DNA of 64,000 bases from Lachnospiraceae bacterium (lineage in GTDB: Bacteria > Bacillota > Clostridia > Lachnospirales > Lachnospiraceae), in NCBI GenBank assembly GCA_017441295.1, contig JAFRYA010000012.1, positions 13,714 to 77,713 on the forward strand. The letters are read 5' to 3'. The notes under the pieces are model-generated. The model searched no databases and was not told the DNA's origin. It saw only the letters and a list, made by a program, of their open reading frames with translations. Positions within the stretch are counted from its first letter, which is position 1, and every line of letters starts with the position of its first letter. Both the position numbers and the translations under genes were made by a program. Positions 4,474 to 22,807 of this stretch are shown here, in pieces.

Positions 4474-4502
4474 ATTATAGCATAGGATTTATAAATAATC
4501 AA
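4474..4502 (-). promoter_or_regulatory. Candidate sigma-A promoter for tig (extended -10)
   Basis: The minus strand reads TTGATT, 17 nt, then TGcTATAAT, about 60 nt upstream of the tig ATG. Confidence 0.45.
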
Positions 4503-5277: not shown

Positions 5278-5278
5278 A

Positions 5279-7823: not shown

Positions 7824-7953
7824 AACCGAATAATATTATCAAATCCATCCAATAAAGTAAAGAGCAACACAATTTATTGCAACTTTGGTGTTATTTGTTC
7901 CAAAAAGCCGTCTCGTTTATTTTTCTTTTTATACTTAACTCAAGGACATAATT

Positions 7954-8196
7954 ATGGATACAAATAGAAGAGTTAATGCTTATATCAACAGAATACGGGA
8001 GATACGTGAAGAGCATAACCTGACGCAGCGCGCTGTTGCTGCTTATCTGCATGTTGTTACCAGAACGTACTGTGATTATGAATCCGGGCGTATCAGAATG
8101 CCCATAGACAGAATGATCAGACTCGCCAAATATTATAACGTTTCAATGGACTATATTACCGGCCTGACAAACGTCAGGGGCCATTTCCCCGGGTGA
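7954..8196 (+). CDS. XRE-family helix-turn-helix transcriptional regulator (80 aa)
   Basis: IREIREEHNLTQRAVAAYLHVVTRTYCDYESG is a typical Cro/CI HTH. Confidence 0.8.
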   Translation: MDTNRRVNAYINRIREIREEHNLTQRAVAAYLHVVTRTYCDYESGRIRMPIDRMIRLAKYYNVSMDYITGLTNVRGHFPG

Positions 8197-8236
8197 TCGT
8201 CCGCAAAAAACCGGCTGCTTCTCACAACCGGCTTTC

Positions 8237-9184
8237 TTAATCCAATTCAGGCAGCGGGTGTCCCGCGAAGAATTCTTTTATAAAAACTATTGCCTCCTTC
8301 TCATGCGGCTTGAGGCTGGAATCCTGCCTCCTCAGCAGGCAGATCATCATTTCATTAGGTGTGCCCTTTCTGAGGCTGCTTATCTTCAATACCTTAAACC
8401 TGTCCAGATCGTCTCTTCCGTCATAGAAGATAGAATAACCGCTGAGGCATGTGGCCGCGTTGCTGCTGAGCACCGCGTCTTTGACCAATGACACCGTCGG
8501 GTAAATAGTATATGACGCAGGTCTGCTGCCCTTGCCTGCTCCTAAGATGGAACTCTCAGGTGCTGAAAAGTGTGACAGCAGAACGAGATGGTGTTCCCTC
8601 AGTTCATCCATCTCCACACTGTCCCGTAAAGCCAGCGGATGGTCTTTAGAAACCAATACGTAGATGCAGTCCCTGCCCAGGATTTCCATATCTATCTGGT
8701 ATCTGAGCGCAGCGGTCTTGTACCTTTCAATCTCTTTGGTATTAAAGTATGTGACACCAATATTACCGGCGCTCTGGATCATGCTCGGTGCTACCTGCTC
8801 TCCGCTGATCACCTTGAAATCCACCGTGGCATCTTTGTTCTTGCCCAGGTAAGACTTCATGAACGGCACCGCCATGGCACAGCCAATGCTCGGTGAAGTG
8901 TAGATGTTCAGGGTCTTGTTGATCGCCATATGCTTGTCACGCAGCTTATAGAGGCTTTCGAACTTCTCGTCGATTTCCTTCATCAGCCTGATGGCTTCCT
9001 TACCCTTCTCTGTCGTTACAACTCCGTTGCTGGTGCGGCTGAAGATTTCAAATCCGACTGTTTTCTCGACATTCTTAACAATGGCTGACAATGTTGTCTG
9101 CCCTATATACAGCGTTCTCGAGGCTGCGGAGATGGAATGCAGCCTGTCAATTTCAATCATATAATTAAAATGTTCAGATCTCAT
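8237..9184 (-). CDS. LysR-family transcriptional regulator
   Basis: N-terminal HTH LHSISAASRTLYIGQTTLSAIVKNVEKTVGFEIF plus a substrate-binding domain of typical length (315 aa). Confidence 0.9.
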   Translation of the reverse strand: MRSEHFNYMIEIDRLHSISAASRTLYIGQTTLSAIVKNVEKTVGFEIFSRTSNGVVTTEKGKEAIRLMKEIDEKFESLYKLRDKHMAINKTLNIYTSPSIGCAMAVPFMKSYLGKNKDATVDFKVISGEQVAPSMIQSAGNIGVTYFNTKEIERYKTAALRYQIDMEILGRDCIYVLVSKDHPLALRDSVEMDELREHHLVLLSHFSAPESSILGAGKGSRPASYTIYPTVSLVKDAVLSSNAATCLSGYSIFYDGRDDLDRFKVLKISSLRKGTPNEMMICLLRRQDSSLKPHEKEAIVFIKEFFAGHPLPELD

Positions 9185-10112
9185 CCTGCCTCTCCTGTCC
9201 CTTAAAGAACTCTCTGATCTCGCTGCAGATCAGTCTTTCCTGATAACACAGGTACTGGTTGTCCTTGTGTATCAGGCAAATGAAAATCTGCTCAGGCTGC
9301 TGCACCTTTACAGGCTTTACAACCAGATGCTCCTTTTCAAAATCACAGAGCATATCCGCCATCCTCATCGGGATAAATGCCAGATTCTCTGTCTGCGCGA
9401 TATATTTCTTAACTATCTCTATATCTCCGACTACAGAAGCGTGCGGGGCATCAATTCCCAGCCTGCCTGCTGCCTTGTCATGAGATTCTTTGTTTACCGA
9501 TATCGTTCCATATCCGTTAATGTCTTCCGGCACGATAAATGCTCCCGCGGCAAGCGGATGGTCAGCGGACATCAATATGCCTATATAATCACCTGCCAGA
9601 CGCTCTATCTGTATATTATTGTATGCGGGATTGGACTCAACTATTCTCTGGATATCATTATCAGACAGGTATCCCAGGCCAACATTGGCCTGATCCTGTG
9701 AAATCAGCTGGCATATCCTGTCGCTGGAGAATGCTTTGACCTGAATGCTTCCGCCGGGAACTCTCTGATAATAATCATTGGAGATTTTAACCGCTATGCC
9801 TGAAGAAATGATTTCGTTTGAAAGAACGATAATATCCCTTTTAGAGAAAAAGGCCTCATCCTCATTACCCAGCCACAGGAGTTCTTCATATTTGTTGATG
9901 ATTTCCTGCACATAGCCTATGAGGATCTTGCCTTCAGATGTGGTGGTGACTCCGGTAGGAATGCGCTTGAAAATGGTGAAGCCCAGCTCTTCTTCGATCG
10001 TTTTTATGGTAAAAGAAAGCGTTGTCTGCTTGAGGTTCAGATTCTTGGCCGCAGCAGATATAGAATGTGATCTATTTATTTCAAGAAGATATTGGAGCTT
10101 CTCTAATCTCAT
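9174..10112 (-). CDS. LysR-family transcriptional regulator (second tandem copy)
   Basis: HTH SHSISAAAKNLNLKQTTLSFTIKTIEEELGFTIF. Overlaps the next LysR gene by 11 nt. Confidence 0.9.
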   Translation of the reverse strand: MRLEKLQYLLEINRSHSISAAAKNLNLKQTTLSFTIKTIEEELGFTIFKRIPTGVTTTSEGKILIGYVQEIINKYEELLWLGNEDEAFFSKRDIIVLSNEIISSGIAVKISNDYYQRVPGGSIQVKAFSSDRICQLISQDQANVGLGYLSDNDIQRIVESNPAYNNIQIERLAGDYIGILMSADHPLAAGAFIVPEDINGYGTISVNKESHDKAAGRLGIDAPHASVVGDIEIVKKYIAQTENLAFIPMRMADMLCDFEKEHLVVKPVKVQQPEQIFICLIHKDNQYLCYQERLICSEIREFFKGQERQDEI

Positions 10113-10185
10113 CCAGCAACACTCCTATTTTAATTATATTATTTATATCACATTTTGTTCTTCTAATCAAATTTGCGGCAAAATT

Positions 10186-10216
10186 TAAGAGGCAGGACTT
10201 TTAATGTCCTGCCTCT
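10186..10216. terminator. Intrinsic terminator hairpin after the opine-DH-like gene
   Basis: aagaggcaggac/ttttaa/gtcctgcctctt, a 12-bp stem flanked by A/T runs on both sides. Confidence 0.6.
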
Positions 10217-10229
10217 TAAAACTGAGTGC

Positions 10230-11300
10230 TTATTCAACCTTCGCGAATATTTCTTCGATGGTCATGTCTTTAGTAAATCCCAGGTTCTCAAGGGTTCTGC
10301 CTTCTGCAAAGTAGTCTACTCCATTGATTACTCCCGCAATCTTAATGAATGCTTCCAGTGTCGGCATCTCAAGTCCGAGCTTCTTGGCCATTGATACAGC
10401 AAAAGCTCCGCCGCATCCGCAATCCTCATGCAGATATCTGTGATCCAGCGCGTTAGGGCCGTCCATGAATTCGTAGAAGATGCGAACTTCAGGATGCTCA
10501 TCGATGTGCGCGATCTTGTTAGCCATGCCTGTTGGCTCACCGTGAACCTGCCATCCAAGAGCTTCGATGACCGGCTTGCGCTCCTCAGCGATCTTCTCAA
10601 CGCACTTCATAACAGAAGGTGTGAAAGCGAATTTGAACAGTGAGAACGCATCGCCCGTCCTGTCGATCTGCGGTGCGGAAAGTGTGGTGGTTGCAACATG
10701 GTTTACAACATTGCCTGTATTCATTGCAGCTTCAAATACATTCTGGTTAGCAGCATACTCGAAGATGCCATTCAGTTTTTCAAGAACCTTGGCTGTGTCT
10801 CTGGCCGGAAGTGAGCAGACCTTGCCCTTTCTGTTCAGAGGATTGCCAACAGTAACTTCTGCAGGCATTGACAGTCTGCATGGTCCTAAGTTGCCTTCCT
10901 TCTCTGTAAGGGTGACCTTGGCGGTTACGCCCATCTCTTCGAAAACTTTCTTAAATACAAATGATCCGAGGTTGCCCGGGAACAGGATGATGTCCTGGCC
11001 GTCCTCAACGTAAGGCGCGATCCTTCTGGCAATCTCTTCCTGACGCATTGACGGAACATGAACGAAGATCAGCTCAACGCCCTTTACTGCCTCAGCGAAG
11101 TCAGTGGTAACCAGCTTAGGTGTGCCGGTTCCATGGTTGTTTCCGCGCAGTGTGATAAATCCAACTTTCTTAACTGCTTCCAGAGCGTCAGCAAAACGCT
11201 CGTCATCGCAGAAATTAACTTCTACACCATTCATTGCCAGCAGGCATGCCATATAGTGGCCTGTTGCGCCTGCGCCTAAAACTGCAGCTGTCTTAAACAT
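10230..11300 (-). CDS. NAD(P)-dependent opine (octopine/nopaline) dehydrogenase family protein
   Basis: Rossmann motif AAVLGAGATGH and C-terminal HRYLHEDCGCGGAFAVSMAKKLGLEMPTLEAFIKIAGVINGVDYFAEGRTLENLG, which matches my memory of the Octopine_DH helical domain. Confidence 0.78.
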   Translation of the reverse strand: MFKTAAVLGAGATGHYMACLLAMNGVEVNFCDDERFADALEAVKKVGFITLRGNNHGTGTPKLVTTDFAEAVKGVELIFVHVPSMRQEEIARRIAPYVEDGQDIILFPGNLGSFVFKKVFEEMGVTAKVTLTEKEGNLGPCRLSMPAEVTVGNPLNRKGKVCSLPARDTAKVLEKLNGIFEYAANQNVFEAAMNTGNVVNHVATTTLSAPQIDRTGDAFSLFKFAFTPSVMKCVEKIAEERKPVIEALGWQVHGEPTGMANKIAHIDEHPEVRIFYEFMDGPNALDHRYLHEDCGCGGAFAVSMAKKLGLEMPTLEAFIKIAGVINGVDYFAEGRTLENLGFTKDMTIEEIFAKVE

Positions 11301-11549
11301 ATGTCTACACTCCTTTTTTGATAAAAATCGGTATATTACTCTATGCTGATTATAGGTTTTCAGTGGTGCTCAAACAATACGCCATCCCCCAATTTGTTAA
11401 CGGAATAATTGGTATGTGTATTATCAAAATAAATAGTGTCTAATATTTTTGCTATCAGTATCAAAAAATACCATTTTTATCATAGCTGCTTATCAATGAT
11501 AATTATATTGATTTAATTTAATACTTTTTTGAGAAAGGAAGATCTGAAT
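11301..11549. promoter_or_regulatory. Divergent promoter/operator region with repeated TTATCA-type motifs and an ATCAAT-N9-ATTGAT palindrome
   Basis: GATAAAAATcGGTAT occurs at about 11320 and, inverted, at about 11466-11482. TTATCA occurs 4 times. The palindrome is at 11492-11512, 38 nt before the ATG at 11550. Confidence 0.35.
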
Positions 11550-12272
11550 ATGTACGGCTGGCGAGCAAAAATGGGCCTGATCACACCGATGAGCGAGAAC
11601 GCTGAGCATGCGTTCCACATTTACGCTCCTGAAGGCGTGAGCTTTGCCTCAATGAAAATCGTTTTCCCGGGACCTACCCCGGAAGGACTTATTGTCTTAA
11701 CCGATCAGTTAGAAGAAACTGCCGCGAAATACAAGGGCTATGACCTGGACCTTGTCATCTTCGGCTGCACCTCCGGTTCCTGCATTAAGGGCATCGGCTG
11801 GGATAAGGAGCTGATCGCAAAAATGGAGAAAGTTACAGGAGGCATTCCTGCCATCACAACCAGCACCGCTGTGCTCGAAGCTTTTGAAAAGCTGGGCACT
11901 AAAAAGGTAGCTGTACTGACACCATACCCGGAAGCAACAAACATTATCGAGAAGAAATTCCTGGAAGACAATGGCTACGAAGTAACCAACATCGTTGGAA
12001 TGGACATGAGTGAATGGACCGCCCAGGGCCACAAGTTCGAATGGGCCAGCGAGGACTTCCTCTACAAGATGGCGGTAAACATGGACCTGAAGGGTGCTGA
12101 CACATTCTTCCTCTCCTGCATGGGACTGACCACCATGGAAATCATCAAAGACCTTGAGACATACATGGAGATTCCTTGCGTAACAAGTCACCAGGCGACC
12201 TTATGGTCCGCCCTCAGGCACTGCAGAGTCGGCGCCAAAAGGGATGACCTCGGCAAGCTGTTCACACTGTAA
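11550..12272 (+). CDS. Asp/Glu/hydantoin-racemase superfamily protein, maleate cis-trans isomerase / arylmalonate decarboxylase-like
   Basis: YGWRAKMGLITP, FGCTSGS and FLSCMGL supply the two candidate catalytic Cys. Start set at the ATG after AAGGAAG rather than the upstream TTG. Confidence 0.75.
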   Translation: MYGWRAKMGLITPMSENAEHAFHIYAPEGVSFASMKIVFPGPTPEGLIVLTDQLEETAAKYKGYDLDLVIFGCTSGSCIKGIGWDKELIAKMEKVTGGIPAITTSTAVLEAFEKLGTKKVAVLTPYPEATNIIEKKFLEDNGYEVTNIVGMDMSEWTAQGHKFEWASEDFLYKMAVNMDLKGADTFFLSCMGLTTMEIIKDLETYMEIPCVTSHQATLWSALRHCRVGAKRDDLGKLFTL

Positions 12273-12284
12273 AGGAGGAGACCA

Positions 12285-12998
12285 ATGTATAGCAAAAGAG
12301 CAAGGATCGGAGTTATAGCTCCAATAGACGACCAGGTTGAATACGCTTTTAACAAATACGCGCCGGACGGTGTGTCATTTGATTCAACCAGACTGTGGTT
12401 CCCGGGACCTACTCCTGAAGGACTCATCTACCTCTCCAACCAGGTTGAGGAAGCTGCCAAGATGTATACCAAACTGCCGCACGACGTCATCCTCTTTGGA
12501 TGTACTTCAGGCAGCTGCATCAAAGGCTTTGGCTGGGACAAAGAACTCATTGCCCAGATTGAAAGGGCCAGCGGATGCAAGGGACTGACCACATCCACCT
12601 GCGTTCTGGACGCATATAAAGCACTCGGTGTTAACAAGACCGTCGTAATGACGCCTTACCCGGATGCTACAAATGAAGCTGAAAAGAAATTCATGGAAGA
12701 TAACGGCATCGAAGTGATATCCATCACCGGCGTCGGATTCAACCCAATGAAAACATACGGATACAAACATGCCGACACGACATTCCTGTACAGGGCCGCC
12801 AAGGCTCTGGACATGACAGGCGCGGATTCATTCTTCCTCTCCTGCATGGGATTGTCCACCATGGAGCTCTGCCGCATCTTCGAAGAAGATTTCGGCATCC
12901 CTGTTATCACCAGCCATCAGGCTTCCCTCTGGGGATGCCTCAGAGCGGCAGGCATCAAGGACAAGCTCGAAGGACTCGGCAAATTACTTACTATCTGA
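12285..12998 (+). CDS. Asp/Glu/hydantoin-racemase superfamily protein, paralog of the preceding gene
   Basis: Same motifs (ARIGVIAP, FGCTSGSCIKG, FLSCMGLSTME). Roughly half the residues are identical to 11550..12272 by eye. Confidence 0.75.
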   Translation: MYSKRARIGVIAPIDDQVEYAFNKYAPDGVSFDSTRLWFPGPTPEGLIYLSNQVEEAAKMYTKLPHDVILFGCTSGSCIKGFGWDKELIAQIERASGCKGLTTSTCVLDAYKALGVNKTVVMTPYPDATNEAEKKFMEDNGIEVISITGVGFNPMKTYGYKHADTTFLYRAAKALDMTGADSFFLSCMGLSTMELCRIFEEDFGIPVITSHQASLWGCLRAAGIKDKLEGLGKLLTI

Positions 12999-13010
12999 AA
13001 GGAGATATAA

Positions 13011-14390
13011 ATGGCTTTTTCACAGATCAAGTACGATACAGACTATACAAAGCAGATCGTAAGCTGGGTCAAAAACCTGAAGTATGAAGATATTCCTCCG
13101 ATGGTTGTTGACCGTGTAAAGATGTTTATGATCCATTGCTGCGGTGTTTCACTGTGTGCAAAGGATATTAAAGGAATGCAGAAAGCAATAGAAATTGCGA
13201 AAGAGATCTCTCCTGGCAAAGAGGGCGATGCGACCCTCTGGGGCGATGGTGCAAAGGTTAGCCCTGAGGCCGCCCTCTTTGCCGCTTCAGCTATGGCTGA
13301 CTGCCTGGACTGGGAAGACTGTGCCATCACCGGCCATCCGACAGCAGGTGTTATTCCTACCGCAGTAATTATGGGCGAAGCACTCCATAAGAGCGGCAAG
13401 GAAGTCCTGACAGCAGCAGTCGCAGCCTATGAAGCATATCTGCGCATTTCCCTCGCAGGCAGGAGCGGAATCTCCAGCTATAACATTTTCGGAAACCTGA
13501 CCCTTCTCATGAAGCTCATGGACCTCGATGAGGAGAAGATGAACCAGCTCTACGGCATCGGCTGCACAATGGCAAGCACCCCTGCCAACGTACATGAGCT
13601 CACAATGTCCGACTCCCTCAACTTCATTTACGGCCTGCGCGGAAATGAATGCGTTACCGCTCTCAGAATCGTAATGAGCGGCATTGAAAACCTCGAGGAC
13701 GGTTTTGACATTCCATACGTTTATTACAACCACTGCGCATATTACAAACCTGAGATCCTTACAATGGACCTCGGAACACGCTGGATGCTCATGGACAGCC
13801 TGCTGATGAAGCATCACCCGGGCAACATGTTCGTCCAGACATATGAAGAAATTGCTCACAGGCTGCTCGCCAAGTACCATTTCAAGGCGGAAGATATTGG
13901 AGAAGTCATCATCAGGCCTTCCATCGCTTTCAGAAACTGGTACACCAAGACAGGCTACAAATCAATTACTCAGGCACAGTTCTCTATCCCGTATACAGTA
14001 GCTGTAGCCCTGACATATGAAGAGCCTGGCGCTAAATGGTACAGTGATGAGACCATGAACGATCCTAAGATCATTGAACTGCTCAACAAGGTCAAGGCAG
14101 ACGGCTTCGTTGACGTCAAGGGCCTCGACGTGCTGAAAGACCTTATGGACGGCAAACATCCGGAGAAGCATATTATTGTCCGCATGAAGGACGGTACTGA
14201 ATATGAGGACAGCCTCTTCACCCATCCGGGACATCCTAACTATATGCTGACCCGCGAGGAAGTTGTTGAAAGATTCAAGCTTGAAACAAAGTATGTGCTG
14301 GCTCCTGAGACAGCTGACAAGTTTATTGAAACAGCTCTTAAATACGACCAGCTGGATGACGTGGCAGAACTGCCTAAATACATTTACTAA
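13011..14390 (+). CDS. MmgE/PrpD-family protein (2-methylcitrate dehydratase-like fold), paralog 1
   Basis: N-terminal YEDIPPMVVDRVKMFMIHCCGVSL, 459 aa, and a length and pattern typical of the PrpD family. Confidence 0.85.
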   Translation: MAFSQIKYDTDYTKQIVSWVKNLKYEDIPPMVVDRVKMFMIHCCGVSLCAKDIKGMQKAIEIAKEISPGKEGDATLWGDGAKVSPEAALFAASAMADCLDWEDCAITGHPTAGVIPTAVIMGEALHKSGKEVLTAAVAAYEAYLRISLAGRSGISSYNIFGNLTLLMKLMDLDEEKMNQLYGIGCTMASTPANVHELTMSDSLNFIYGLRGNECVTALRIVMSGIENLEDGFDIPYVYYNHCAYYKPEILTMDLGTRWMLMDSLLMKHHPGNMFVQTYEEIAHRLLAKYHFKAEDIGEVIIRPSIAFRNWYTKTGYKSITQAQFSIPYTVAVALTYEEPGAKWYSDETMNDPKIIELLNKVKADGFVDVKGLDVLKDLMDGKHPEKHIIVRMKDGTEYEDSLFTHPGHPNYMLTREEVVERFKLETKYVLAPETADKFIETALKYDQLDDVAELPKYIY

Positions 14391-14401
14391 GGAGGCCGGA
14401 C

Positions 14402-15880
14402 ATGAGATACAACAGATTATATCTTGATAACGATTTTTTAACTCCTACCACATATACACAGGATCTGAGCGAATATTCAGAGAATCTGAAGTTTGAAGAC
14501 CTTCCTGAAGAAGTAGTAGAAAGAGCCAAGAGGATCATGGTCCACTGCATCGGCGCGGCCATTGCGTCCGTAGGCACTGAAGTCCATAAAAAGGCTTTTG
14601 ACGCTGCAGTTAAGGCTAACGGCGGTGAAGGCGGTCCTGTAACCGTTTGGGGAACAGGCACCAAGCTCAGCGCTGTTAACGCCGGATTCCTCATGGGAGT
14701 CATGGCTGACGCTCTCGATTGGGAAGACTGCTCATGGACAGGCCATCCTTCAGCAGGCGCTGTACCTGATGCATGGGCAGCTGCTGAGGAAAAACACAGA
14801 TCAGGCCGGGAAATGCTGACCGCCATCGTTGACGCATATGAAATCTACCACCGAATTGCCATGTCAGTTCAGCCAAATCTGGAAAGACGCCAGAAAAACG
14901 GCTGGGGACTTACCAGCTGGCAGATCTTTGCTTCACTGATCCCATATGCCAAGCTGTATGGTTTTGACGCGCGTAAGACTAACCAGGCCATCAGCATGGC
15001 ATGCGAATGCGCCCCTGTTCCGTCAGATTTCCATCAGCTGACCATGTCAGACCATTATCATTATGAGCACGGCTACAGAAACCGCGACGGCGCAATCATC
15101 GCCAAGTCTGTTGAGGCAGGCATTAACAACTGCCGCGACGCTCTGGATGAGCCTAGATGCTATCTGGGCACAATGTGCGGCGATTCAGCTAAGAACGGCT
15201 CTTCTCTCAGAACTGAGCTGGAAGACAAGAAAGAATATGACATTACCTGGCTCACCAGAGACCTGGGCAAGAGATATTTCATCATGGATACACTGCTCAA
15301 GCACTGGCCTGCAAACATGTGGGTACAGACTCCGCTCGAGCTCCTGGATATCCTCCAGAAGAAATACGGTTTCGGTCCGGACGATATTGAATCCATCGTA
15401 CTCGACCCGCCTGTAAAGAGACGCATGTGGGCTTCACCGGATGGATTTGAATCCATTACACATGCGCAGTTCTCTATTCCTTACGTTCTTTCCAGAAGAC
15501 TCCTGGATCCTGTTCCGGGCGCTTACTGGTACACAAAGGACAAGATGAAAGATGCCAGGGCTGCTGAGCTGTCACTGAAGGTTAAAGGCGGTCCGTCACC
15601 TGAGGAATCACCATATGACGGATTCACGCTCTTCCAGCAGGGCAGCTATCCGATGAGAACCCTTACCGTTACTACTAAAGACGGTCATACATATACTGAA
15701 TCCATGGACTGCCATCCGGGTCATCCTGCCAATATGATGTCCCGCGAGGAGCTCTCAGACAGATTCAGGCTGCAGGCCAAAGGCATCCTGCCGGATGAAA
15801 AGATTGAGAAGGCACTGGACGCTCTTTGGAACATAGAAAAGGCTGAGGACATTGCAGCTGTTTCAGATCTCCTCTGCTGA
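14402..15880 (+). CDS. MmgE/PrpD-family protein, paralog 2
   Basis: FEDLPEEVVERAKRIMVHCIGAAIAS, DWEDCSWTGHPSAG, 492 aa. Confidence 0.85.
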   Translation: MRYNRLYLDNDFLTPTTYTQDLSEYSENLKFEDLPEEVVERAKRIMVHCIGAAIASVGTEVHKKAFDAAVKANGGEGGPVTVWGTGTKLSAVNAGFLMGVMADALDWEDCSWTGHPSAGAVPDAWAAAEEKHRSGREMLTAIVDAYEIYHRIAMSVQPNLERRQKNGWGLTSWQIFASLIPYAKLYGFDARKTNQAISMACECAPVPSDFHQLTMSDHYHYEHGYRNRDGAIIAKSVEAGINNCRDALDEPRCYLGTMCGDSAKNGSSLRTELEDKKEYDITWLTRDLGKRYFIMDTLLKHWPANMWVQTPLELLDILQKKYGFGPDDIESIVLDPPVKRRMWASPDGFESITHAQFSIPYVLSRRLLDPVPGAYWYTKDKMKDARAAELSLKVKGGPSPEESPYDGFTLFQQGSYPMRTLTVTTKDGHTYTESMDCHPGHPANMMSREELSDRFRLQAKGILPDEKIEKALDALWNIEKAEDIAAVSDLLC

Positions 15881-15896
15881 ACCGGAAAGGAAAGAC

Positions 15897-17174
15897 ATGA
15901 ATACTATTGCTATTATCGGATTCGGTGGCGCAGGCTACAACGCGGCCAGAGCAATACGTAAAAAGGACAGTGAGGCTCTCATCGATGTATATTCAGACTC
16001 CGCCAAAGGCCCATACTGCCCTATGCTGACCACCTATTTCGTTAAAGGTTCGATTCCTTTGGAAGCAATGTATCCGTTCGGAACAATTGACGAAATCCAA
16101 AAGGAACTGAACACTAATTTCTACAACAAAACAGTCACAGCCGTAAAGGGTGCCGAAAAGTGCATCGTTACCGATGACGGCACCGAAAAGGCATATGACA
16201 ATATAATTATCACAACAGGTTCATCGGCCATTATGCCTCCTATACCGGGGCTTGACCTGCCGGGAGTTTTCAAGATGCGCACAGACGCAGATGCCCTGTA
16301 CCTCAAAGAACTCCTGGATTCAGACAAAGCCCGGACCTGCCTGGTCATCGGTGCTTCCTGGGTAGGCATAAAAGTCGTTGAAGATACCGTCATGGCCGGT
16401 CTTGAGACAACTCTTGTGGACGGCGCTGACTGGATGTTCATAACAGCGGCATTTGAGGAGACTTCCTTAAGAGCCCAGAAATATCTTGAATCAAAAGGCG
16501 TCAGGGTTTCATGCGGCGAAATGCTGGATCATATTGAGCAGGAATATGACGGTTCTCTGACCGCTTTAATGAAAAGCGGTGACCGCTTTAATGCTGACTG
16601 CATCGCAATCTGCATAGGTGTCCGCATGAATACCGGGTTCCTTAAGGACAGCGGCATTGCCATGAACCGGGGCGTTATCGTTGACAAGAAGATGCAGACG
16701 AACATCCCCGGCATTTATGCCGCAGGCGACTGCTGCGAATCGATCGACAGCCAGTCCGGTACAAACATGAATATCGGAGTCTGGGCCAACGCCCAACAGC
16801 AGGGAGCTGTCGCAGGAGTAAATGCAGCAGGCGGCAATCAGGAATTTGACGCCAATATCCTCATCAATCTGGCACATTTCCTGGATTATGACTTCCTGGC
16901 CTATGGCAATATCAGACTCTGCTCTCCTGATGACGACTGGTATGAATATGAGGATGAGAAATACTACATCAAAGCCTGCAGGGGACAGGACGGAAGCATC
17001 AAATGCGTGAACATTACAGGTTCCGCTGATATTAACGGATTATTTAAGAATAACTTTATAAAGGGACTTATTGAGGGCGAAACATCATTTAATGTTAAAG
17101 CGGCATGTCAGATGCGTGACAAAGGCGTACCTCAAAGCTTTATAGACTTCTTGGGAGGAATAAAAATTGACTGA
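15897..17174 (+). CDS. FAD-dependent pyridine nucleotide-disulfide oxidoreductase (NADH oxidase / CoA-disulfide reductase-like)
   Basis: IAIIGFGGAGYNAA, redox-Cys context KGPYCPMLTTYF, second dinucleotide fold VIGASWVGIK, AAGDC. Start at ATG 15897 after GGAAAGGAAAG. Confidence 0.85.
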   Translation: MNTIAIIGFGGAGYNAARAIRKKDSEALIDVYSDSAKGPYCPMLTTYFVKGSIPLEAMYPFGTIDEIQKELNTNFYNKTVTAVKGAEKCIVTDDGTEKAYDNIIITTGSSAIMPPIPGLDLPGVFKMRTDADALYLKELLDSDKARTCLVIGASWVGIKVVEDTVMAGLETTLVDGADWMFITAAFEETSLRAQKYLESKGVRVSCGEMLDHIEQEYDGSLTALMKSGDRFNADCIAICIGVRMNTGFLKDSGIAMNRGVIVDKKMQTNIPGIYAAGDCCESIDSQSGTNMNIGVWANAQQQGAVAGVNAAGGNQEFDANILINLAHFLDYDFLAYGNIRLCSPDDDWYEYEDEKYYIKACRGQDGSIKCVNITGSADINGLFKNNFIKGLIEGETSFNVKAACQMRDKGVPQSFIDFLGGIKID

Positions 17175-19329
17175 TTTAGAGAAAAAAATTAAAGCCAAAA
17201 TTCCTGGAGAAGACACAGGAATCGAAGTAAAGCACGCCATGTGCTCCATCTGCAGTCCCGGTATGCATTGCGGTGTGGACTGCTACGTAAAGGACGGCCG
17301 GATCATAAAAGTTGAAGGTATGGAATCCCATCCCTGGAGCAAAGGCAAAATCTGCGTAAAAGGCCAGTCAGGCCGTGATTATGTCTACAGGGAAGACAGG
17401 ATCAAAACCCCTCTTAAGCGCGTTGGCGCAAGAGGTGAAGGCAAGTTCGAGCCTATCAGCTGGGACGAAGCCATCGCTATGATCGCGGAAAACCTTAATA
17501 AAGTCAAAGCCGAGTACGGCCCTGAAAGCGTTATGTTCCTGTCAGGCTACTGCAAATGGTACAGACCATGGCTACACAGGATGGCACATGTTTTCGGCAC
17601 ACCGAACTTCGGAACCGATGACTGCAACTGCTCTGCCGCAATGGTTGTTGCCAACAAGTGCACATCAGGCACAGGCGGCGGCGCAGACTTCGGAAAATGC
17701 AATACATTCTTTGGCTGGAACTACGACGGTTATTATTCAAACCACATGAACGTAGCTTCTGTTAAAGGAGTAAAGAAAAGGGGCGGCAAGGTGATCATTA
17801 TTGACATCCGCGAAACCCCTGCAGTAAAGAACCTCGCAGATATCTTCGTTCAGATCAATCCCGGAACTGATGGTGCCCTGGCACTCGGAATGGCCAACGA
17901 GATCATAAAGAACGGTTGGGAAGACAAAGAATATGTTGAGAAATATACTCACGGTTTCGCGCAGTATAAGGCTCTCTGCGCTGAATATGACCTGGACAAG
18001 GTTGAAGCCATTACAGGCGTTTCAAAAGACATGATCAAAGAGCTCGCAAGACTCTACGCCTGCGAAGGCCCTACAGCCTGCAACTACTCTGCTTCAGCGC
18101 TCGTTCATCATATTAACGGCTTTAACGCTCACAGGGCTGTTCTCTGCCTCTCAGCGTTAACCGGCAATTTTGACAGGGCCGGCGGACAGGTTCCGGTACC
18201 TGTCACTTACCTTCACAAGAGCGCAGGCTTCAGTACCAGAGAAGCTGAATTCCGTTCAAGCGCGGATCCAAGAAAGACCAATCCGGACTGCAAGAGGATC
18301 CTGGGTGCAGACAGATTCCCGTTATGGGAAGAAAAGTTTGATGAGACCCAGACAATGGACCTGCTGCACCAGCTCACCACGGATGAGCCTTATCCGATCA
18401 GAGCCATTTACGCTCACGGCATGAATGTCAAGATGTATCCGGAGAGCGACAATCTGGCCAGGGCAATGGCTGAGAAACTGGACTTCTTCGTTCTCACCGA
18501 TCTCTTCATGACATATACGGCCAAGTGGGCTGACCTCGTGCTGCCTGCATGCTCCAGTTTCGAAAGATCAGAGATCAAATGCTACGCCGGCGGATACGCT
18601 GTGTTTACAGAACCTGTCATCCAGCCTCTGTATGAGTCCAGATCAGACGTTGATATCATTTACGATGTTTACCATGCGCTGGGCCTCAAAGACGAATTAA
18701 TGGACCTCGGATATGAGGGTTCGATAGATTGGATGTTTGACGGCTGCGGAACATGCGTTTCTGAGCTCAAAAATGGCCATAATATGCCTCTTAAGGTTCC
18801 GAATGCAAAATGGCCCGTTGCTCCGGGAAAACAGCTGGAAAACGGATTTAAGACGCCTACAGGCAAGTTCGAATTCTATTCAGAGTCAATTGCCAAGGTT
18901 GATAAGAAGTACGGCCTCGATCCGCTGCCTGTATACTACGATTCCCTGGCTGACGAGCCGGATCCTGAAGGCAGATATCCATATTACCTCTGCACCGGCG
19001 CCAGATTGTCTATCTCACTTCACAGCAGGGTCCATGAGGTACCATACCTCAGGCAGCTGAGAAAGCATCCTATGTGTGAAGTCAACATGGAAGACATGAA
19101 GGCTCTCGGCCTCAAAGACGGCGACGACGTGGTGCTTTACAGCCCTCATGGCGAGATCACCGTCAAAGTACACGGCACATTTAAGATCAAACCGGGTGTG
19201 ATACTCATGCTCCACGGATATACAGAAGCAAATGTCAACCTGCTCGAAGGCAGAGACCATCTGGATCCGTATTCAGGATATCCGGGACACAAGGGAATGC
19301 GCTGCAACATTCGCAAGGAGGTGAAATAA
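17167..19329 (+). CDS. Molybdopterin (bis-MGD) oxidoreductase catalytic subunit, DMSO-reductase superfamily, no Tat signal
   Basis: N-terminal 4Fe-4S motif CSICSPGMHCGVDC...IKVEG. 720 aa, uninterrupted (no in-frame TGA). TTG start is preceded by GGGAGGA and overlaps the upstream gene by 8 nt. Confidence 0.85.
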   Translation: MTDLEKKIKAKIPGEDTGIEVKHAMCSICSPGMHCGVDCYVKDGRIIKVEGMESHPWSKGKICVKGQSGRDYVYREDRIKTPLKRVGARGEGKFEPISWDEAIAMIAENLNKVKAEYGPESVMFLSGYCKWYRPWLHRMAHVFGTPNFGTDDCNCSAAMVVANKCTSGTGGGADFGKCNTFFGWNYDGYYSNHMNVASVKGVKKRGGKVIIIDIRETPAVKNLADIFVQINPGTDGALALGMANEIIKNGWEDKEYVEKYTHGFAQYKALCAEYDLDKVEAITGVSKDMIKELARLYACEGPTACNYSASALVHHINGFNAHRAVLCLSALTGNFDRAGGQVPVPVTYLHKSAGFSTREAEFRSSADPRKTNPDCKRILGADRFPLWEEKFDETQTMDLLHQLTTDEPYPIRAIYAHGMNVKMYPESDNLARAMAEKLDFFVLTDLFMTYTAKWADLVLPACSSFERSEIKCYAGGYAVFTEPVIQPLYESRSDVDIIYDVYHALGLKDELMDLGYEGSIDWMFDGCGTCVSELKNGHNMPLKVPNAKWPVAPGKQLENGFKTPTGKFEFYSESIAKVDKKYGLDPLPVYYDSLADEPDPEGRYPYYLCTGARLSISLHSRVHEVPYLRQLRKHPMCEVNMEDMKALGLKDGDDVVLYSPHGEITVKVHGTFKIKPGVILMLHGYTEANVNLLEGRDHLDPYSGYPGHKGMRCNIRKEVK

Positions 19330-19847
19330 TGAAAAAGGTATTTACTTTTGATCAGGACCAGTGCTGTGCCTGTGGATGCTGCGTTGTGGCATGCACAGAC
19401 CAGAACGACATAGATTTAAGATGCGGAGACATTCCGTTCAGAAAGACTTTCGATGACGAATTTGCCACAGCAGACGGCCACTACAGCGCATACATTTCAG
19501 CTGCATGCATGCACTGCGTTGACGCTCCGTGCATCACTGCATGCCCTGTTGGCTGCATTTCCAAGGATCCTGAAACAGGATTCACCATCTACGACAATAC
19601 CAACTGCATCGGCTGCAAGTCCTGCGCAATGGCCTGCCCGTTCGGCGCGCCGAGATACAGACACTCAGACGGCAAGATGGTAAAATGCGACGGATGCAAC
19701 GAAAGAGTCAAAGCCGGCCTCAGACCGGCATGCGTCAAGGCATGTCCGTTTGGAGCCCTGGATTGTGTGGATGAAGAAGAATATCTCGCTTCAGGCTCAA
19801 ACAAAGCATGCAATGTGCTGATCCACAATCTTGATTTAAGATTCTGA
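19329..19847 (+). CDS. 4Fe-4S dicluster ferredoxin-type electron-transfer subunit (DmsB-like)
   Basis: Four Cys clusters: CCACGCCVVAC, CMHCVDAPCITACP, CIGCKSCAMACP, CDGC...CVKACP. TAATG overlap with the catalytic subunit. Confidence 0.87.
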   Translation: MKKVFTFDQDQCCACGCCVVACTDQNDIDLRCGDIPFRKTFDDEFATADGHYSAYISAACMHCVDAPCITACPVGCISKDPETGFTIYDNTNCIGCKSCAMACPFGAPRYRHSDGKMVKCDGCNERVKAGLRPACVKACPFGALDCVDEEEYLASGSNKACNVLIHNLDLRF

Positions 19848-19863
19848 TCCGCAGTTGATTACG

Positions 19864-19888
19864 GCCCTCCCTTCGGGGAGGGCTTTTT
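19864..19888 (+). terminator. Rho-independent terminator of the + strand cluster
   Basis: gccctccc/ttcg/gggagggc followed by TTTTT. Confidence 0.85.
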
Positions 19889-19940
19889 ATTTGTTCCTCC
19901 TGACCGGACACATGTGCTATACTCTTTTCAGGAGGACGCA

Positions 19941-20711
19941 ATGCTTATCAAAGATATAAATGATCCTGTATTGACAGTTTATAAAGATCTGAAGGAATCT
20001 CAACTGAAGCATTATTACGAGCCTGAGGCAGGCCTTTTCATCTGCGAAAGCCCGAGGCTGATAAAGAGGGCTCTGGATGCGGGCTATCTGCCTGAATCAT
20101 TCCTGGCAGACCCTGATGCACTGAGTGAAGATGACCTGAATCTTCTTAATGGAGCTCCGGTCTATACCGCGCCGGTTGAAATACTTACCACAATCACCGG
20201 CTACCATCTCACTGAGGGCATGCTCTGCGCAATGCGCAGAAAGCCCCTGCCCGCTCCTGAACAGGTGCTTACAGGCAGGCGCGTTGTGGTTCTCGAGGAC
20301 ATTGAAAACCCAACGAATGTTGGCGCTATCTTCCGCTCTGCAGCTGCTTTGGGAATGGACGCAGTCCTTTTGACAGAAGGATGCGCAGACCCGCTATACC
20401 GGCGCGCAGCCAGGGTCAGCATGGGCGGCGTATTTCAGATTCCATGGACCTATATCCCATCACTGGATATCTTGAAAGCATTGGGTTATAAAATGGCTTC
20501 CATGGCACTGTCTGACCATACAGTCTCCATAGACGATCCGTTGCTGATGGCAGAAGAACATCTTGCTATTCTGCTCGGAAATGAAAACAATGGTCTCCTC
20601 CCGGAAACCATTGCTGCGAGTGACTATATAATTAAGATTCCAATGGCGAATGATGTTGATTCGCTGAATGTGGCAGCTGCCGCCGCGATCGCATTCTGGC
20701 AGCTCAGATAA
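19941..20711 (+). CDS. TrmH/SpoU-family RNA 2'-O-methyltransferase
   Basis: NPTNVGAIFRSAAALG, LLGNENNGL, IPMANDVDSLNVAAAAAIAFW. ATG at 19941 follows AGGAGG. Confidence 0.85.
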   Translation: MLIKDINDPVLTVYKDLKESQLKHYYEPEAGLFICESPRLIKRALDAGYLPESFLADPDALSEDDLNLLNGAPVYTAPVEILTTITGYHLTEGMLCAMRRKPLPAPEQVLTGRRVVVLEDIENPTNVGAIFRSAAALGMDAVLLTEGCADPLYRRAARVSMGGVFQIPWTYIPSLDILKALGYKMASMALSDHTVSIDDPLLMAEEHLAILLGNENNGLLPETIAASDYIIKIPMANDVDSLNVAAAAAIAFWQLR

Positions 20712-20746
20712 AAAAGGATCCGCCCGAAAGCGGATCCATTTTTTAT
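20711..20746. terminator. Bidirectional intrinsic terminator
   Basis: aaaaa ggatccgc/ccgaaa/gcggatcc atttttt, lying between convergent genes. Confidence 0.8.
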
Positions 20747-21948
20747 TTCTCTTTCTTTACATCTTTGATAGTTAAGTTGATCACCAGTCCGATCAGTGAC
20801 AGGGCCATCAGGATGATGAACGGGATCAGGTATCCGCCTGTCTTCTCAGCGATGACACTGCACAGTGTAGCAATCAGGGATGCTACCAGCAGGTTGCAGG
20901 AGCAGATGCTGAGGTTTGTCGGGAAGTATTTGTCGCCAAAGAACATTCTGGTTGCAACAGCTGTACCGGTCGGGCATGTACCAAGTGTGGCACCTGACAG
21001 GCAGAGTGCAACGATACAGATCGGCAGTGACTGTGTAATAGGTGTAAGGATGCAGAATCCGGAAGCGATGATTGCCAGGATGCTGCTTATGATCATGGAT
21101 TTACGTCTGCCCAGGCTGTCGAAGAGGAATCCGATAATGATTCTGCTGAGTCCGTTGCAGACTGCGAACATACCAACCATTGTGGTCGCCAGTGAATCAG
21201 AGCCGCCTGCACCGATAGTCATATCCTTTGCAACGCTGGCAACAACATTGCCGACTGCTGTAAGGAATACCAGCAGAATGAAAACACGCCAGAAGACAGA
21301 AGTCTTGACCATTTCCTTAACAGTGTAATCCCTGGCTGCTGAGTTGGCTGCCTGCTTCTGAGGAACTGCAGGGATTTCTTCAGGCTTAGGAGCCCTGATA
21401 ATAAGGCCTGCAATGATCAGGATCACGCCGATAGCGATGCCGAGGATCATGAAGGTTGTTCTCCAACCGATAATTCCGAAAAGTGAATTGGAAACATTGC
21501 CGATAATAAGTGTGCTGGCGCCGAATCCCATCATAAGGATGCCTGAGCACAGTCCCTTCTTATCAGGGAACCATGCATTAATGGTGGAAACCAGTACATT
21601 GTACGCAATACCGATGCCAATGCCTGAAATTATTCCGTAGAAAATATAAAGTGCTGCAATAGCTGTTCCTGACAGTGCGAAAGAAGTTACTACGAATCCG
21701 CCGCCGCCGAGGATCGCCGCGATGATAACAGTCAGCGTAACGCCGAGCTTTTTGGATATCAGACTGCCGATGATACCGCCCACGCAGAAGAATACCATCG
21801 TAAGTGTGAAGTTAACAGTAAGCTGTGAATTGCTCCAGCCAAATTCCTGGCCGAGAGGCATTTTGAGTACGGACCATGTATAAATAACGCCTGCGAACAG
21901 CATGGCAATGGTTCCGACTACCAGATATACCCATCTTTTAGCTTTCAT
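20743..21948 (-). CDS. MFS transporter, oxalate/formate antiporter (OFA)-like
   Basis: 12-TM-like hydrophobic profile, 401 aa, N-terminus KRWVYLVVGTIAMLFAGVIYTWSV typical of OFA-family MFS proteins. Confidence 0.8.
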   Translation of the reverse strand: MKAKRWVYLVVGTIAMLFAGVIYTWSVLKMPLGQEFGWSNSQLTVNFTLTMVFFCVGGIIGSLISKKLGVTLTVIIAAILGGGGFVVTSFALSGTAIAALYIFYGIISGIGIGIAYNVLVSTINAWFPDKKGLCSGILMMGFGASTLIIGNVSNSLFGIIGWRTTFMILGIAIGVILIIAGLIIRAPKPEEIPAVPQKQAANSAARDYTVKEMVKTSVFWRVFILLVFLTAVGNVVASVAKDMTIGAGGSDSLATTMVGMFAVCNGLSRIIIGFLFDSLGRRKSMIISSILAIIASGFCILTPITQSLPICIVALCLSGATLGTCPTGTAVATRMFFGDKYFPTNLSICSCNLLVASLIATLCSVIAEKTGGYLIPFIILMALSLIGLVINLTIKDVKKEK

Positions 21949-22093
21949 TTTTTAAGTCTCCCCTTTTTGTATAATTCTCAACCATTATAAACAACTCCGC
22001 ATAAAAAAGTAAATGTGTATGGTTATTGATTTTTTGGTGTCTATATCAATTTTTTTTATACATTTTGCTTTGTTTTTCCCTCTTTAGGGCTAA

Positions 22094-22256
22094 GTTTAAT
22101 TCTGATTTTATAATTCGAGCTGTTTTACTACTGTGCTGCTCTTTTATTATACAGCTGAATATTCGACTAAACCGACGTGGAGAATATTCGGCTGTATAAT
22201 AAAAGAGCTGTTACACAGCAGTGCAACAGCTCTCATTAATAAAATCAGAATTAAAC
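22094..22256. repeat. 163-bp near-perfect palindrome with a conserved 19-nt apical loop (copy 1 of 2)
   Basis: Core: 22139-22163 pairs with 22183-22207 (25 bp, one T-G); loop CGACTAAACCGACGTGGAG at 22164-22182. Outer arms 22094-22110 and 22240-22256 are perfectly complementary (17/17). Confidence 0.7.
22196..22232 (-). terminator. rplQ intrinsic terminator, embedded in the right arm of the palindrome
   Basis: The minus strand reads GAGCTGTTgcac-tgct-gtgtAACAGCTC followed by TTTTATTAT. Confidence 0.6.
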
Positions 22257-22787: not shown

Positions 22788-22807
22788 AACCTATATGCCT
22801 CCTTTAA

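Follow-up and report, generated by a model that had tools for sequence, protein, structure and literature searches.

The 64,000-nucleotide stretch of the Lachnospiraceae bacterium contig JAFRYA010000012.1 analyzed here (contig positions 13,714 to 77,713, referred to as the window) carries a gene cluster that was examined as a candidate catabolic system of gut Clostridia. Seven plus-strand genes encode two racemase/isomerase-like proteins, two MmgE/PrpD-fold (PrpD-like) proteins and the three components of a molybdenum or tungsten enzyme, namely a flavoprotein (FAD), a subunit of the Mo/W-bis-pyranopterin guanine dinucleotide (bisPGD) type (Mo) and an iron-sulfur subunit (Fe-S). A divergent gene of the opine-dehydrogenase (opine-DH) family, followed by two genes for LysR-type regulators, completes the cluster (Table 1). 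A previous annotation made from the letters alone (the sequence-only reading) had described the seven genes with their spacings, two overlaps and terminator, as well as the divergent gene and the two regulators. All of the open reading frames were recovered at the coordinates it gave, and its account was confirmed by the open reading frame map, the domain scans and the sequences at the gene junctions.

Table 1. Coordinates of the features of the cluster and its downstream carrier gene in the window.
Feature	Position	Strand	Length and evidence
LysR-type regulator 1	8237..9184	-	315 aa; HTH_1 41 bits and LysR_substrate 37 bits, both above Pfam cut-offs
LysR-type regulator 2	9174..10112	-	312 aa; HTH_1 56 bits, LysR_substrate 38.5 bits
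Opine-dehydrogenase-family NAD(P) oxidoreductase	10230..11300	-	356 aa; Octopine_DH 81.7 bits; divergent from operon
Candidate operator palindrome	11450..11464	+	TGCTA-N4-TATCAA; within divergent promoter region
Two-thiol racemase/isomerase-like protein 1	11550..12272	+	240 aa; Amdase/Asp_Glu_race superfamily; Amdase 102 bits
Two-thiol racemase/isomerase-like protein 2	12285..12998	+	237 aa; Amdase 104 bits
MmgE/PrpD-fold protein 1	13011..14390	+	459 aa; MmgE_PrpD_N and _C above cut-off; divergent subfamily
MmgE/PrpD-fold protein 2	14402..15880	+	492 aa; Pfam domains above cut-off; divergent subfamily
FAD/NAD(P)H flavoprotein, ferredoxin-reductase type	15897..17174	+	425 aa; Pyr_redox_2 169.5 bits
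Cytoplasmic Mo/W-bisPGD subunit	17167..19329	+	720 aa; N-terminal [4Fe-4S] site, predicted Cys ligand; three Pfam domains
Four-cluster ferredoxin-like electron-transfer subunit, DmsB/PsrB type	19329..19847	+	172 aa; Fer4_11 83.7 bits
Intrinsic terminator	19863..19884	+	GGCCCTCCC-TTCG-GGGAGGGCT, then TTTTTATTTGT
MFS monocarboxylate/oxalate-formate-like carrier	20743..21948	-	MFS_1 114 bits

The first five genes of the seven-gene row were separated by gaps of 12, 12, 11 and 16 nt. Furthermore, an 8-nt overlap joined the stop of the FAD gene to the start of the Mo gene (TTGACTGA, 17167/17174), and a TAATG overlap at 19327-19331 linked the latter gene to the Fe-S gene. The stem of the terminator had 9 bp, 7 of them G-C pairs, with a T-run after it. 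The short gaps, the two start/stop overlaps and the single terminator suggest that the row is one unit. The ATG at 15897 was preferred as the start of the flavoprotein because the resulting 425 aa match the length of the orthologues. No riboswitch (the molybdenum cofactor (Moco) type included) or other Rfam element was found in or before the operon. The exact proteins of the window were on record only under generic product names, in Lachnospiraceae metagenome-assembled genomes (MAGs).

The divergent intergenic region (11301-11549) was 249 bp long and AT-rich. In at least 14 orthologous loci of different genera, a palindrome of the form TGsTA-N4-6-TAsCAA preceded the first operon gene by 50-350 bp, with only 63 occurrences in 1.65 Mb when both strands were counted. 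The palindrome at 11450-11464 fits control by the divergent LysR protein and is a candidate operator. Both regulators of the window had the HTH_1 and LysR_substrate domains; the CdaR-type variants of the cluster used another regulator. The two LysR genes of the window overlapped by 11 nt. Regulator 2 was 26-33% identical to the LysR protein encoded beside orthologous clusters, and every NCBIfam equivalog score of regulator 1 was far under its cut-off.

The Mo subunit was a member of the DMSO-reductase (Mo/W-bisPGD) superfamily. Its Molybdopterin (132 bits), Molydop_binding (76.5 bits) and Molybdop_Fe4S4 (49 bits) domains all scored above the Pfam cut-offs, and the top 50 Foldseek matches were all in the family. 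The best PDB matches were acetylene hydratase (AH; E = 1e-66) and PsrA (1e-59), followed by formate dehydrogenases (FDH) and Nap. Foldseek also ranked AH first, at 27% identity, with a poor AlphaFold model (predicted local distance difference test score of 64; an 11-sequence alignment) that gave nothing beyond the sequence search. Cys155 aligned with Cys141 of AH and Cys173 of PsrA and was invariant in 83/83 members. The position of Asp13 of AH was occupied by Ser in the window and by Ser, Cys, Ala or Thr, never Asp, across the 83 members. In addition, Ser instead of the His of FDH directly followed the ligand Cys. No twin-arginine (Tat) motif was present in the N-terminus of the Mo subunit, and no membrane-anchor gene was seen in any locus examined.

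The best NCBIfam matches of the flavoprotein were PadH, CoADR, NorW and HcaD, all under their cut-offs, and the Fe-S subunit, in whose translation four Cys motifs were found, scored 124.6 bits with the DMSO_dmsB model against a cut-off of 214. Among 87 loci there were 87 Mo, 85 Fe-S and 73 FAD genes. The Fe-S gene lay directly after the Mo gene in 85 of the 87 and the FAD gene beside it in 73, and the FAD/Mo overlap, mostly of 8 nt or 4 nt, recurred family-wide. Judged from this gene order, FAD-Mo-FeS is an invariant and apparently translationally coupled unit. The trio is predicted to be a soluble, NAD(P)(H)-linked three-component enzyme because the Tat motif and anchor gene are missing and the FAD and Fe-S partners are invariant.

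The trio was compared with the known Mo/W-bisPGD enzymes. It shares with the Cys-ligated branch (AH, PsrA/PhsA, FdhF and NapA/NasA) the three-domain architecture and the N-terminal [4Fe-4S] site, with AH and PsrA the aligned ligand Cys, and with AH, FdhF and Nas the cytoplasmic location of the Mo subunit. It differs from the AH of Pelobacter acetylenicus (PDB 2e7z), to which it is 27% identical, in that the essential Asp13 is replaced. Moreover, AH works without redox partners, whereas the Mo subunit of the cluster is always accompanied by FAD and four-cluster Fe-S proteins; AH identity was rejected on these two grounds. FDH was rejected for the missing Cys-His dyad and a score below the cut-off; Psr/Phs for the missing Tat motif and NrfD anchor and a sub-threshold PhsA score; and DmsABC for the missing Tat motif and anchor, a Cys instead of a Ser ligand and a sub-threshold score. 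The assimilatory NADH-nitrate reductase of the NasBC type has an architecture in which electrons pass from NAD(P)H through a flavoprotein to a soluble Mo-bisPGD reductase. The trio resembles it in being cytoplasmic, in having a Pyr_redox_2-type flavoprotein that would feed a Cys-ligated bisPGD subunit, and in having no energy-conserving membrane part. Unlike NasBC, it has a separate DmsB-like four-cluster subunit and stands in a context of organic-acid or amino-acid catabolism and not of nitrogen assimilation; the NasC model gave 191 bits against a cut-off of 1100.

The distribution of the cluster was surveyed with one genome per species. Eighty loci were returned, all from Clostridia; their genes were called with a self-trained codon model that reproduced the deposited calls, and the products were grouped by BLAST. 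The focal group comprised 32 species-level genomes of Oscillospiraceae, Lachnospiraceae and Anaerotruncus, with a Mo subunit at least 56% identical to that of the window. Counted on contigs many of which are truncated, PrpD-like genes adjoined the Mo enzyme in 30 of the 32, racemase-like genes in 26, an opine-DH-like gene in 25, a CitMHS-like carrier of about 490 aa (T6) in 22 and an OCD/mu-crystallin gene in 16. Since this gene set accompanies orthologues of the Mo enzyme in dozens of species, the gene neighborhood is not due to chance. The sequence-only reading had made its case depend on the genes co-occurring outside their source genome, which they do; as a correction to it, the conserved system also takes in the Fe-S subunit, the T6 carrier and OCD. 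Most orthologous loci carried genes for Moco and molybdopterin guanine dinucleotide (MGD) biosynthesis, and MobA, MobB, MoeA, MoaA and MoaC genes adjoined them, which gives contextual support to a bis-MGD cofactor with Mo or W in the predicted enzyme.

More than 100 orthologue clusters of the Mo subunit were found at 60-69% identity, single clusters representing as many as 318 member sequences or 380 contigs. Cultured gut species from human, mouse and chicken were among those with the cluster, including Flavonifractor, Pseudoflavonifractor, Oscillibacter, Enterocloster aldenensis, E. asparagiformis, E. lavalensis, E. hominis and Anaerotruncus colihominis, whose strain DSM 17241 has the locus at NZ_CP102255.1 230,778-252,907. 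Metagenome contigs of Flavonifractor and Oscillibacter had the order LysR< OpDH< transporter< / Amd> Amd> PrpD> PrpD> FAD> Mo> FeS> and also held OCD/mu-crystallin and Moco/MGD biosynthesis genes, whereas E. asparagiformis had a shorter version, CdaR> PrpD> OpDH> transporter> FAD> Mo> FeS>. The window was 68% identical to Flavonifractor and 65% to E. aldenensis. We read this as horizontal spread of the cluster among gut Clostridia, because the identities do not track taxonomy. No plasmid-borne copy above 31% identity was found in PLSDB.

The top NCBIfam matches of the Mo subunit were Fdh-alpha (309 bits, TIGR01591), PhsA (263 bits) and DmsA/YnfE (257 bits), which would agree with an ordinary enzyme of respiration or housekeeping (a formate dehydrogenase, a polysulfide/thiosulfate reductase or a DMSO reductase) whose place beside unrelated metabolic genes is accidental. 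These scores were far under the cut-offs of 666, 694 and 778, respectively. Together with the absence of a Tat signal, a membrane anchor and an FDH dyad, the translational coupling to the upstream genes and the co-occurrence with PrpD-like genes, they make such an explanation barely credible.

The best solved relative of the opine-DH-like protein was the Arthrobacter enzyme CENDH (PDB 1bg6; E = 1e-37). Equivalents of its His202, Arg292 and Asp297 were present in the window protein and in 32/32 orthologues, so that the protein belongs to the PF02317 family by its Octopine_DH domain and its catalytic His/Arg/Asp set, as do CENDH and octopine dehydrogenase. It differs from the known opine dehydrogenases in being embedded in a multi-enzyme operon of an anaerobe. 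The co-clustered OCD protein had its highest scores with archaeal alanine dehydrogenase and with SbnB, an enzyme that cleaves an opine-like intermediate by oxidation. Furthermore, a polar-amino-acid ABC importer whose permease passes the HEQRo (His/Glu/Gln/Arg/opine) domain model was embedded within a module of racemase-like, opine-DH and two PrpD-like genes in a Synergistaceae MAG (L090), together with an arylamine N-acetyltransferase-like gene. The retained CENDH set, the closeness of OCD to SbnB and this importer suggest that the substrate is of amino-acid or opine nature.

The two racemase-like proteins were 53% identical to each other and scored 97-100 bits with the arylmalonate decarboxylase (AMDase) model NF052327, which has a cut-off of 225. 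The best PDB match of protein 2 was the AMDase G74C variant 3ixm; its Cys73 aligned with Gly74 of AMDase and its Cys187 with Cys188. Both catalytic positions were Cys in 52/53 cluster-associated racemase-like proteins. AMDase activity was rejected for both small proteins on account of the Cys at position 74. They belong to the two-thiol racemase/epimerase/isomerase branch of the Asp/Glu-racemase superfamily, which includes maleate isomerase, and a role in stereo-inversion is predicted from the two Cys residues. The earlier label of "maleate-isomerase-like" proteins is corrected to this two-thiol type, which sets them apart from the arylmalonate decarboxylases.

The PrpD-like paralogues were 37% identical to each other, and their N- and C-terminal MmgE/PrpD domains scored above the Pfam cut-offs. 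Cis-aconitate decarboxylase (CAD) was the best PDB match of protein 2 (E = 1e-17), and iminodisuccinate (IDS) epimerase was among the few solved relatives (E = 1e-8 to 1e-10). Asp93, His103, Lys207 and Lys272 are invariant across all three characterized MmgE/PrpD activities (PMC6789909). The PrpD-like proteins kept the equivalents of Asp93 and His103, whereas that of Lys207 was Asp in 57/58 members and Glu in one, that of Lys272 was variable, and no equivalent of His159 was found in the alignment. In protein 2 the counterparts of Lys207 and Thr97 were Asp217 and Cys110, respectively. The PrpD equivalog models gave 37 bits against a cut-off of 950. Canonical PrpD, CAD or IDS-epimerase function was rejected because of the Asp at position 207. 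The earlier assignment to MmgE/PrpD was thus borne out for the domains, without the invariant Lys207 of the family, and the proteins are members of the fold family that form a catalytically distinct subfamily.

The transporters gave further clues to the substrate. T6 reached the CitMHS threshold in 2/6 members and matched a DASS carrier weakly; in other loci it was replaced or joined by a TRAP DctPQM, SSF or MFS carrier. The partner transporters (CitMHS-like, TRAP DctP and the HEQRo ABC system) were all of the organic-acid or the polar-amino-acid/opine type. The regulators across the loci were of the LysR, CdaR ("sugar diacid") or PucR type. An acidic substrate is suggested by the CitMHS-like or TRAP DctP carriers and by the CdaR-type regulators of the variant clusters. 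Taken together, the carriers, regulators, OCD and the L090 importer point to a compound that is acidic, resembles an amino acid and has a secondary amine adjacent to a carboxylate. The sequences do not tell apart trans-aconitate/tricarballylate, dipicolinate, tartrate, carboxymethyl-lysine, nicotianamine and cycloalliin or other sulfoxides as candidates, and the literature on carboxymethyl-lysine named no genes.

In the window, the sequence-only reading had pointed to an OFA-type MFS carrier downstream of the operon. The gene is present, and "OFA-type" is an approximate term: the product scored 179 bits with the OFA model (cut-off 375) and 245 bits with the L-lactate MFS (SfMCT) model (cut-off 320). 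Its link to the operon is weak. A SpoU/TrmH-family RNA methylase gene (19914-20737) separates the operon terminator from the MFS gene. In the L036 locus a 30%-identical MFS gene lay directly after the Fe-S gene, and it is possible that the MFS gene of the window is a stand-in for the missing T6 carrier. A bidirectional hairpin (20716-20737) formed the common end of the methylase gene and the convergent MFS gene.

The carboxylate-type carriers and regulators (CitMHS-like, TRAP DctP, CdaR) would also agree with a pathway that involves no nitrogen and whose substrates are hydroxylated or unsaturated di- or tricarboxylates resembling tartrate, aconitate or hydroxycitrate. The opine-DH-like protein would then be a 2-hydroxy/2-oxo-acid dehydrogenase, the PrpD-like proteins dehydratases or decarboxylases, the racemase-like proteins epimerases or cis-trans isomerases, and the Mo enzyme a reductive dehydroxylase of an alpha-ketol or enediol. 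Such a scheme would be redox-neutral, and the known substrates of the MmgE/PrpD family and of maleate isomerase are nitrogen-free polycarboxylates. Moreover, enoate-reductase-like genes (Oxidored_FMN + Pyr_redox_2) flanked several loci, and the nearest solved relative of the Mo subunit is AH, whose clade presumably also holds reductive dehydroxylases. Nevertheless, conservation in the cluster extends to two separate families of amine/imine oxidoreductases (opine-DH and OCD), a polar-amino-acid/opine importer serves the Synergistaceae module, and the PrpD-like proteins lack the Lys207 common to all three characterized activities. A nitrogen-free pathway was consequently regarded as quite unlikely.

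The direction of the pathway was also considered. Opine dehydrogenases thermodynamically favor synthesis. This, with the MatE and MFS genes near several loci, would suit a cluster that makes and exports an opine-type metallophore, or one in which reductive condensation yields an opine as a fermentation end product and so disposes of electrons. The module is served, however, by import-only systems (ABC importers dependent on a substrate-binding protein and TRAP carriers), and a divergent layout with LysR or CdaR regulators is typical of catabolic operons. In addition, no nicotianamine-synthase-like or SbnA-like gene was found, and known opine metallophore synthesis has no role for the racemase-like and PrpD-like pairs. 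A biosynthetic function is thus very improbable.

Paralogous trios, 42-49% identical, formed a sister cluster type (L041-L086; e.g., L047:4911-14348, L059:279-13779 and L051 of Faecalibacterium prausnitzii). Their neighbors were a PatB-family C-S lyase, an amino-acid permease, DUF554, EamA, a GntR-FCD regulator and RidA, and for other copies Opp-type permeases, an M24 peptidase and a LysR gene. In a roe-deer rectum Oscillospiraceae MAG (L081:~7000-15000), a tandem Mo-FeS-FAD-Mo-FeS arrangement was observed, in which a single flavoprotein gene serves both of two paralogous Mo enzymes or lies between them. Among 45 genomes with such paralogues, PatB-family lyases occurred in 24 and the full gene set of the focal cluster in one. 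The lyases scored 385-420 bits with TIGR04350 (cut-off 340). The gene context suggests that the sister trio is a soluble Mo enzyme acting on S-substituted cysteines. Twenty-six positions separated the focal from the PatB-type Mo enzymes, including Asp-Asp versus Glu-Ser just before the ligand Cys, and carried no readable substrate signal.

These sister trios raise the question of sulfur-substituted amino-dicarboxylates (such as S-(2-succino)cysteine-like thioethers, their sulfoxides or cyclic thia-imino acids) as substrates of the focal cluster. The Mo enzyme would act at the sulfur or the sulfur-bearing carbon as an anaerobic replacement for the O2-dependent C-S monooxygenases of the YxeK/CmoJ type, and the PrpD-fold proteins would epimerize the heteroatom-bearing succinyl carbon. 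The association of the paralogous trios with PatB-family lyases, amino-acid permeases, EamA and RidA would agree with this, as would the Cys ligand and the presence of PsrA/PhsA among the nearest Mo relatives. In the L057 locus, a PatB gene lay between the racemase-like/opine-DH/PrpD module and the trio; the Synergistaceae module adjoined Rrf2, PALP and Cys_Met_Meta_PP genes and its permease was most like cystine permease; and M20 amidohydrolase genes flanked three orthologous loci. A parallel is found in the yxe operon of Bacillus subtilis for S-(2-succino)cysteine, which has a polar-amino-acid ABC importer, an M20-type deacetylase and YxeQ, cleaves a heteroatom-succinyl bond and depends on a monooxygenase that needs O2 (PMC9706529). 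The cluster differs from the yxe operon, which has an O2-dependent monooxygenase or a lyase and neither an opine-DH nor a Mo enzyme. The intact opine-DH set and the OCD/SbnB-like enzyme speak for C-N and not C-S chemistry, and no C-S lyase was found inside the focal clusters, such a gene lying nearby in 1/34 loci. The PrpD-like proteins matched B. subtilis "IRG1" (7bra) only weakly (1e-5 to 1e-7), which was counted against a sulfur substrate; YxeQ is presumably a PrpD-family member. A sulfur substrate for the focal cluster was considered unlikely.

Accounting for the above, the system that we tentatively favor, at somewhat less than an even chance, is a single substrate-inducible catabolic system that has spread horizontally among gut Clostridia and handles an anionic amino-acid derivative after its import. 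The substrate would most likely be an N-(carboxyalkyl)amino acid of the "opine-like" kind (an iminodiacid or aminopolycarboxylate). The sequence-only reading had already envisaged an inducible pathway in which a redox Mo step serves the use of an opine-like compound, an aminopolycarboxylate or a polycarboxylate, and the opine-DH set, the carrier types and the LysR palindrome lend support to it.

In the proposed pathway, the compound would be taken up by the CitMHS-like T6 carrier in most genomes, by TRAP, SSF or ABC systems elsewhere and perhaps by the MFS carrier in the window. The racemase-like and PrpD-fold pairs would act at the carboxylate-adjacent carbons, epimerizing them (cf. IDS epimerase) or dehydrating, so that all stereoisomers could reach a cleavable form. 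Electrons would flow from NAD(P)H through the FAD flavoprotein and the four-cluster ferredoxin subunit to the [4Fe-4S] center and the Cys-ligated Mo/W-bisPGD site. The Mo enzyme would perform a two-electron reaction at a heteroatom function, either of the substrate itself or of an intermediate, such as a deoxygenation, a dehydroxylation or a cleavage at sulfur. The opine-DH-family enzyme would then cleave the secondary amine with NAD(P)+ to an amino acid and a 2-oxo acid, joined in most genomes by the OCD/SbnB-like enzyme, and the divergent LysR regulator or regulators would turn the operon on through the conserved palindrome. The Mo step is somewhat more probably reductive than oxidative because the known soluble flavoprotein-fed bisPGD enzymes are reductases, because NAD+ is a poor acceptor for most hydroxylations and because electron sinks profit fermenters. 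An anaerobic "hydroxylase" role is accordingly somewhat less probable. While the gene architecture, the coupling, the conservation and the residue status are observed, the chemistry, the step order and the direction of the pathway are all deduced from them.

Several points weigh against the proposed pathway. T6 and OCD are missing from the window; indeed, no T6 carrier, OCD, Moco, PatB, M20 or OYE gene was found anywhere in its 64 kb. The opine-DH fold could double as a plain 2-oxo-acid reductase, and opine cleavage with NAD+ is thermodynamically uphill. Cys-ligated bisPGD enzymes are known to act on nitrate, formate, polysulfide/thiosulfate, arsenate and acetylene, and are not known for classical S- or N-oxide reduction. 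In the CdaR-type variants, the trio was 59-69% identical to that of the window, whereas the identity of the PrpD and opine-DH partners fell to 31-36%; in L003/L004, L022, L026-L030, L088 and L089, the values were 59-64% for the trio and 30-36% for the partners. The histories of the redox module and of the carbon-skeleton module thus differ in these variants, and the trio could be a generic redox module shuffled between pathways. Furthermore, the racemase-like/opine-DH/PrpD module exists without a Mo trio: the Synergistaceae MAG (L090:3642-12346) had racemase-like, opine-DH and two PrpD-like genes with no trio nearby, and a Christensenellales genome had two PrpD-like, TRAP and opine-DH genes with no adjacent trio. 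The Mo step is therefore not intrinsic to the module. These findings point to the racemase-like/PrpD/opine-DH module as the core, onto which the Clostridia joined the Mo trio. In a Christensenellales locus (L087:75-2202), a DDE transposase insertion splits the TRAP DctP gene of a cluster of two PrpD-like, DctQM and opine-DH genes.

The cluster was also compared with two further characterized systems. The IDS catabolism of Agrobacterium likewise ties a PrpD-fold enzyme to an N-(carboxyalkyl)amino-dicarboxylate and interconverts stereoisomers before C-N cleavage, as would be the case here. That pathway consists of IDS epimerase and a C-N lyase with no Mo enzyme, whereas the cluster has no aspartase/fumarase-type lyase; IDS epimerase keeps Lys207, whereas the PrpD-like proteins of the cluster have Asp; and in the cluster the opine-DH-like enzyme would cleave the C-N bond oxidatively. 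Bacteria with classical opine catabolism rely on opine oxidases that are membrane flavoproteins. The second system is the EutA/EutC pair of the hydroxyectoine system EutABC, which combines an Amdase-superfamily with an OCD-family protein. Both were among the best NCBIfam matches to cluster proteins, with scores far under the cut-offs (EutA 98 vs. 318, EutC 71 vs. 472).

The block from 7824 to 22250, consisting of the two LysR genes, the opine-DH gene, the operon, the SpoU methylase gene and the MFS gene, sits between ecfA and rplQ. It interrupts an otherwise housekeeping, conserved row of rpoA-rplQ-ecfA-ecfA'-ecfT-truA, with flanks at 4489-7823 and 22251-23770. With a G+C content of about 0.50 compared with 0.41-0.47 in the surroundings, the block resembles an acquired island. 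Neither an integrase nor a tRNA gene was seen adjoining it. The interval from the MFS promoter region to the end of rplQ contained a near-perfect palindrome of about 120 nt (22114-22235). The palindrome included a terminator-like hairpin at 22203-22234, and miRNA-precursor models matched it on both strands, well under threshold.

Each protein of the cluster is a member of a known fold family. No published or curated pathway with this gene set was found in NCBIfam, where the equivalog scores were far below the cut-offs, or in the full-text literature, a source that covers few subscription journals; this agrees with the sequence-only reading, which knew of no characterized pathway with the combination. 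The soluble three-component Mo enzyme clade, its fusion with a racemase-like/PrpD/opine-DH module and the altered PrpD active site appear to be undescribed. A broader proposal, which we hold to be doubtful, is that the trio represents a new soluble, NAD(P)H-linked Mo/W-bisPGD class of gut Clostridia that acts on amino-acid-derived organic acids instead of inorganic oxyanions. The branch in the window would complete an anaerobic route for a widespread opine-like aminopolycarboxylate, candidates for which are nicotianamine and phytosiderophores of plants, N-carboxyalkyl amino acids of Maillard origin, opine metallophores of microbes and succinated amino acids, with a PrpD fold bearing a new catalytic set (Asp for Lys207, Cys for Thr97), and the sister branch with PatB C-S lyases would act on S-substituted cysteines.

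The known gut roles of the DMSO-reductase superfamily are those of Tat-exported respiratory reductases and of the catechol dehydroxylases of Actinobacteria. If the proposed pathway is true, the cluster, which is common in gut Clostridia, would add a new reaction to the superfamily and would provide the divergent subfamilies of the PrpD and racemase folds with functions. The system is open to direct test because cultured strains with complete genomes carry it. It would then stand for a so far unassigned anaerobic route by which gut Clostridia degrade a dietary or host-derived amino-polycarboxylate.

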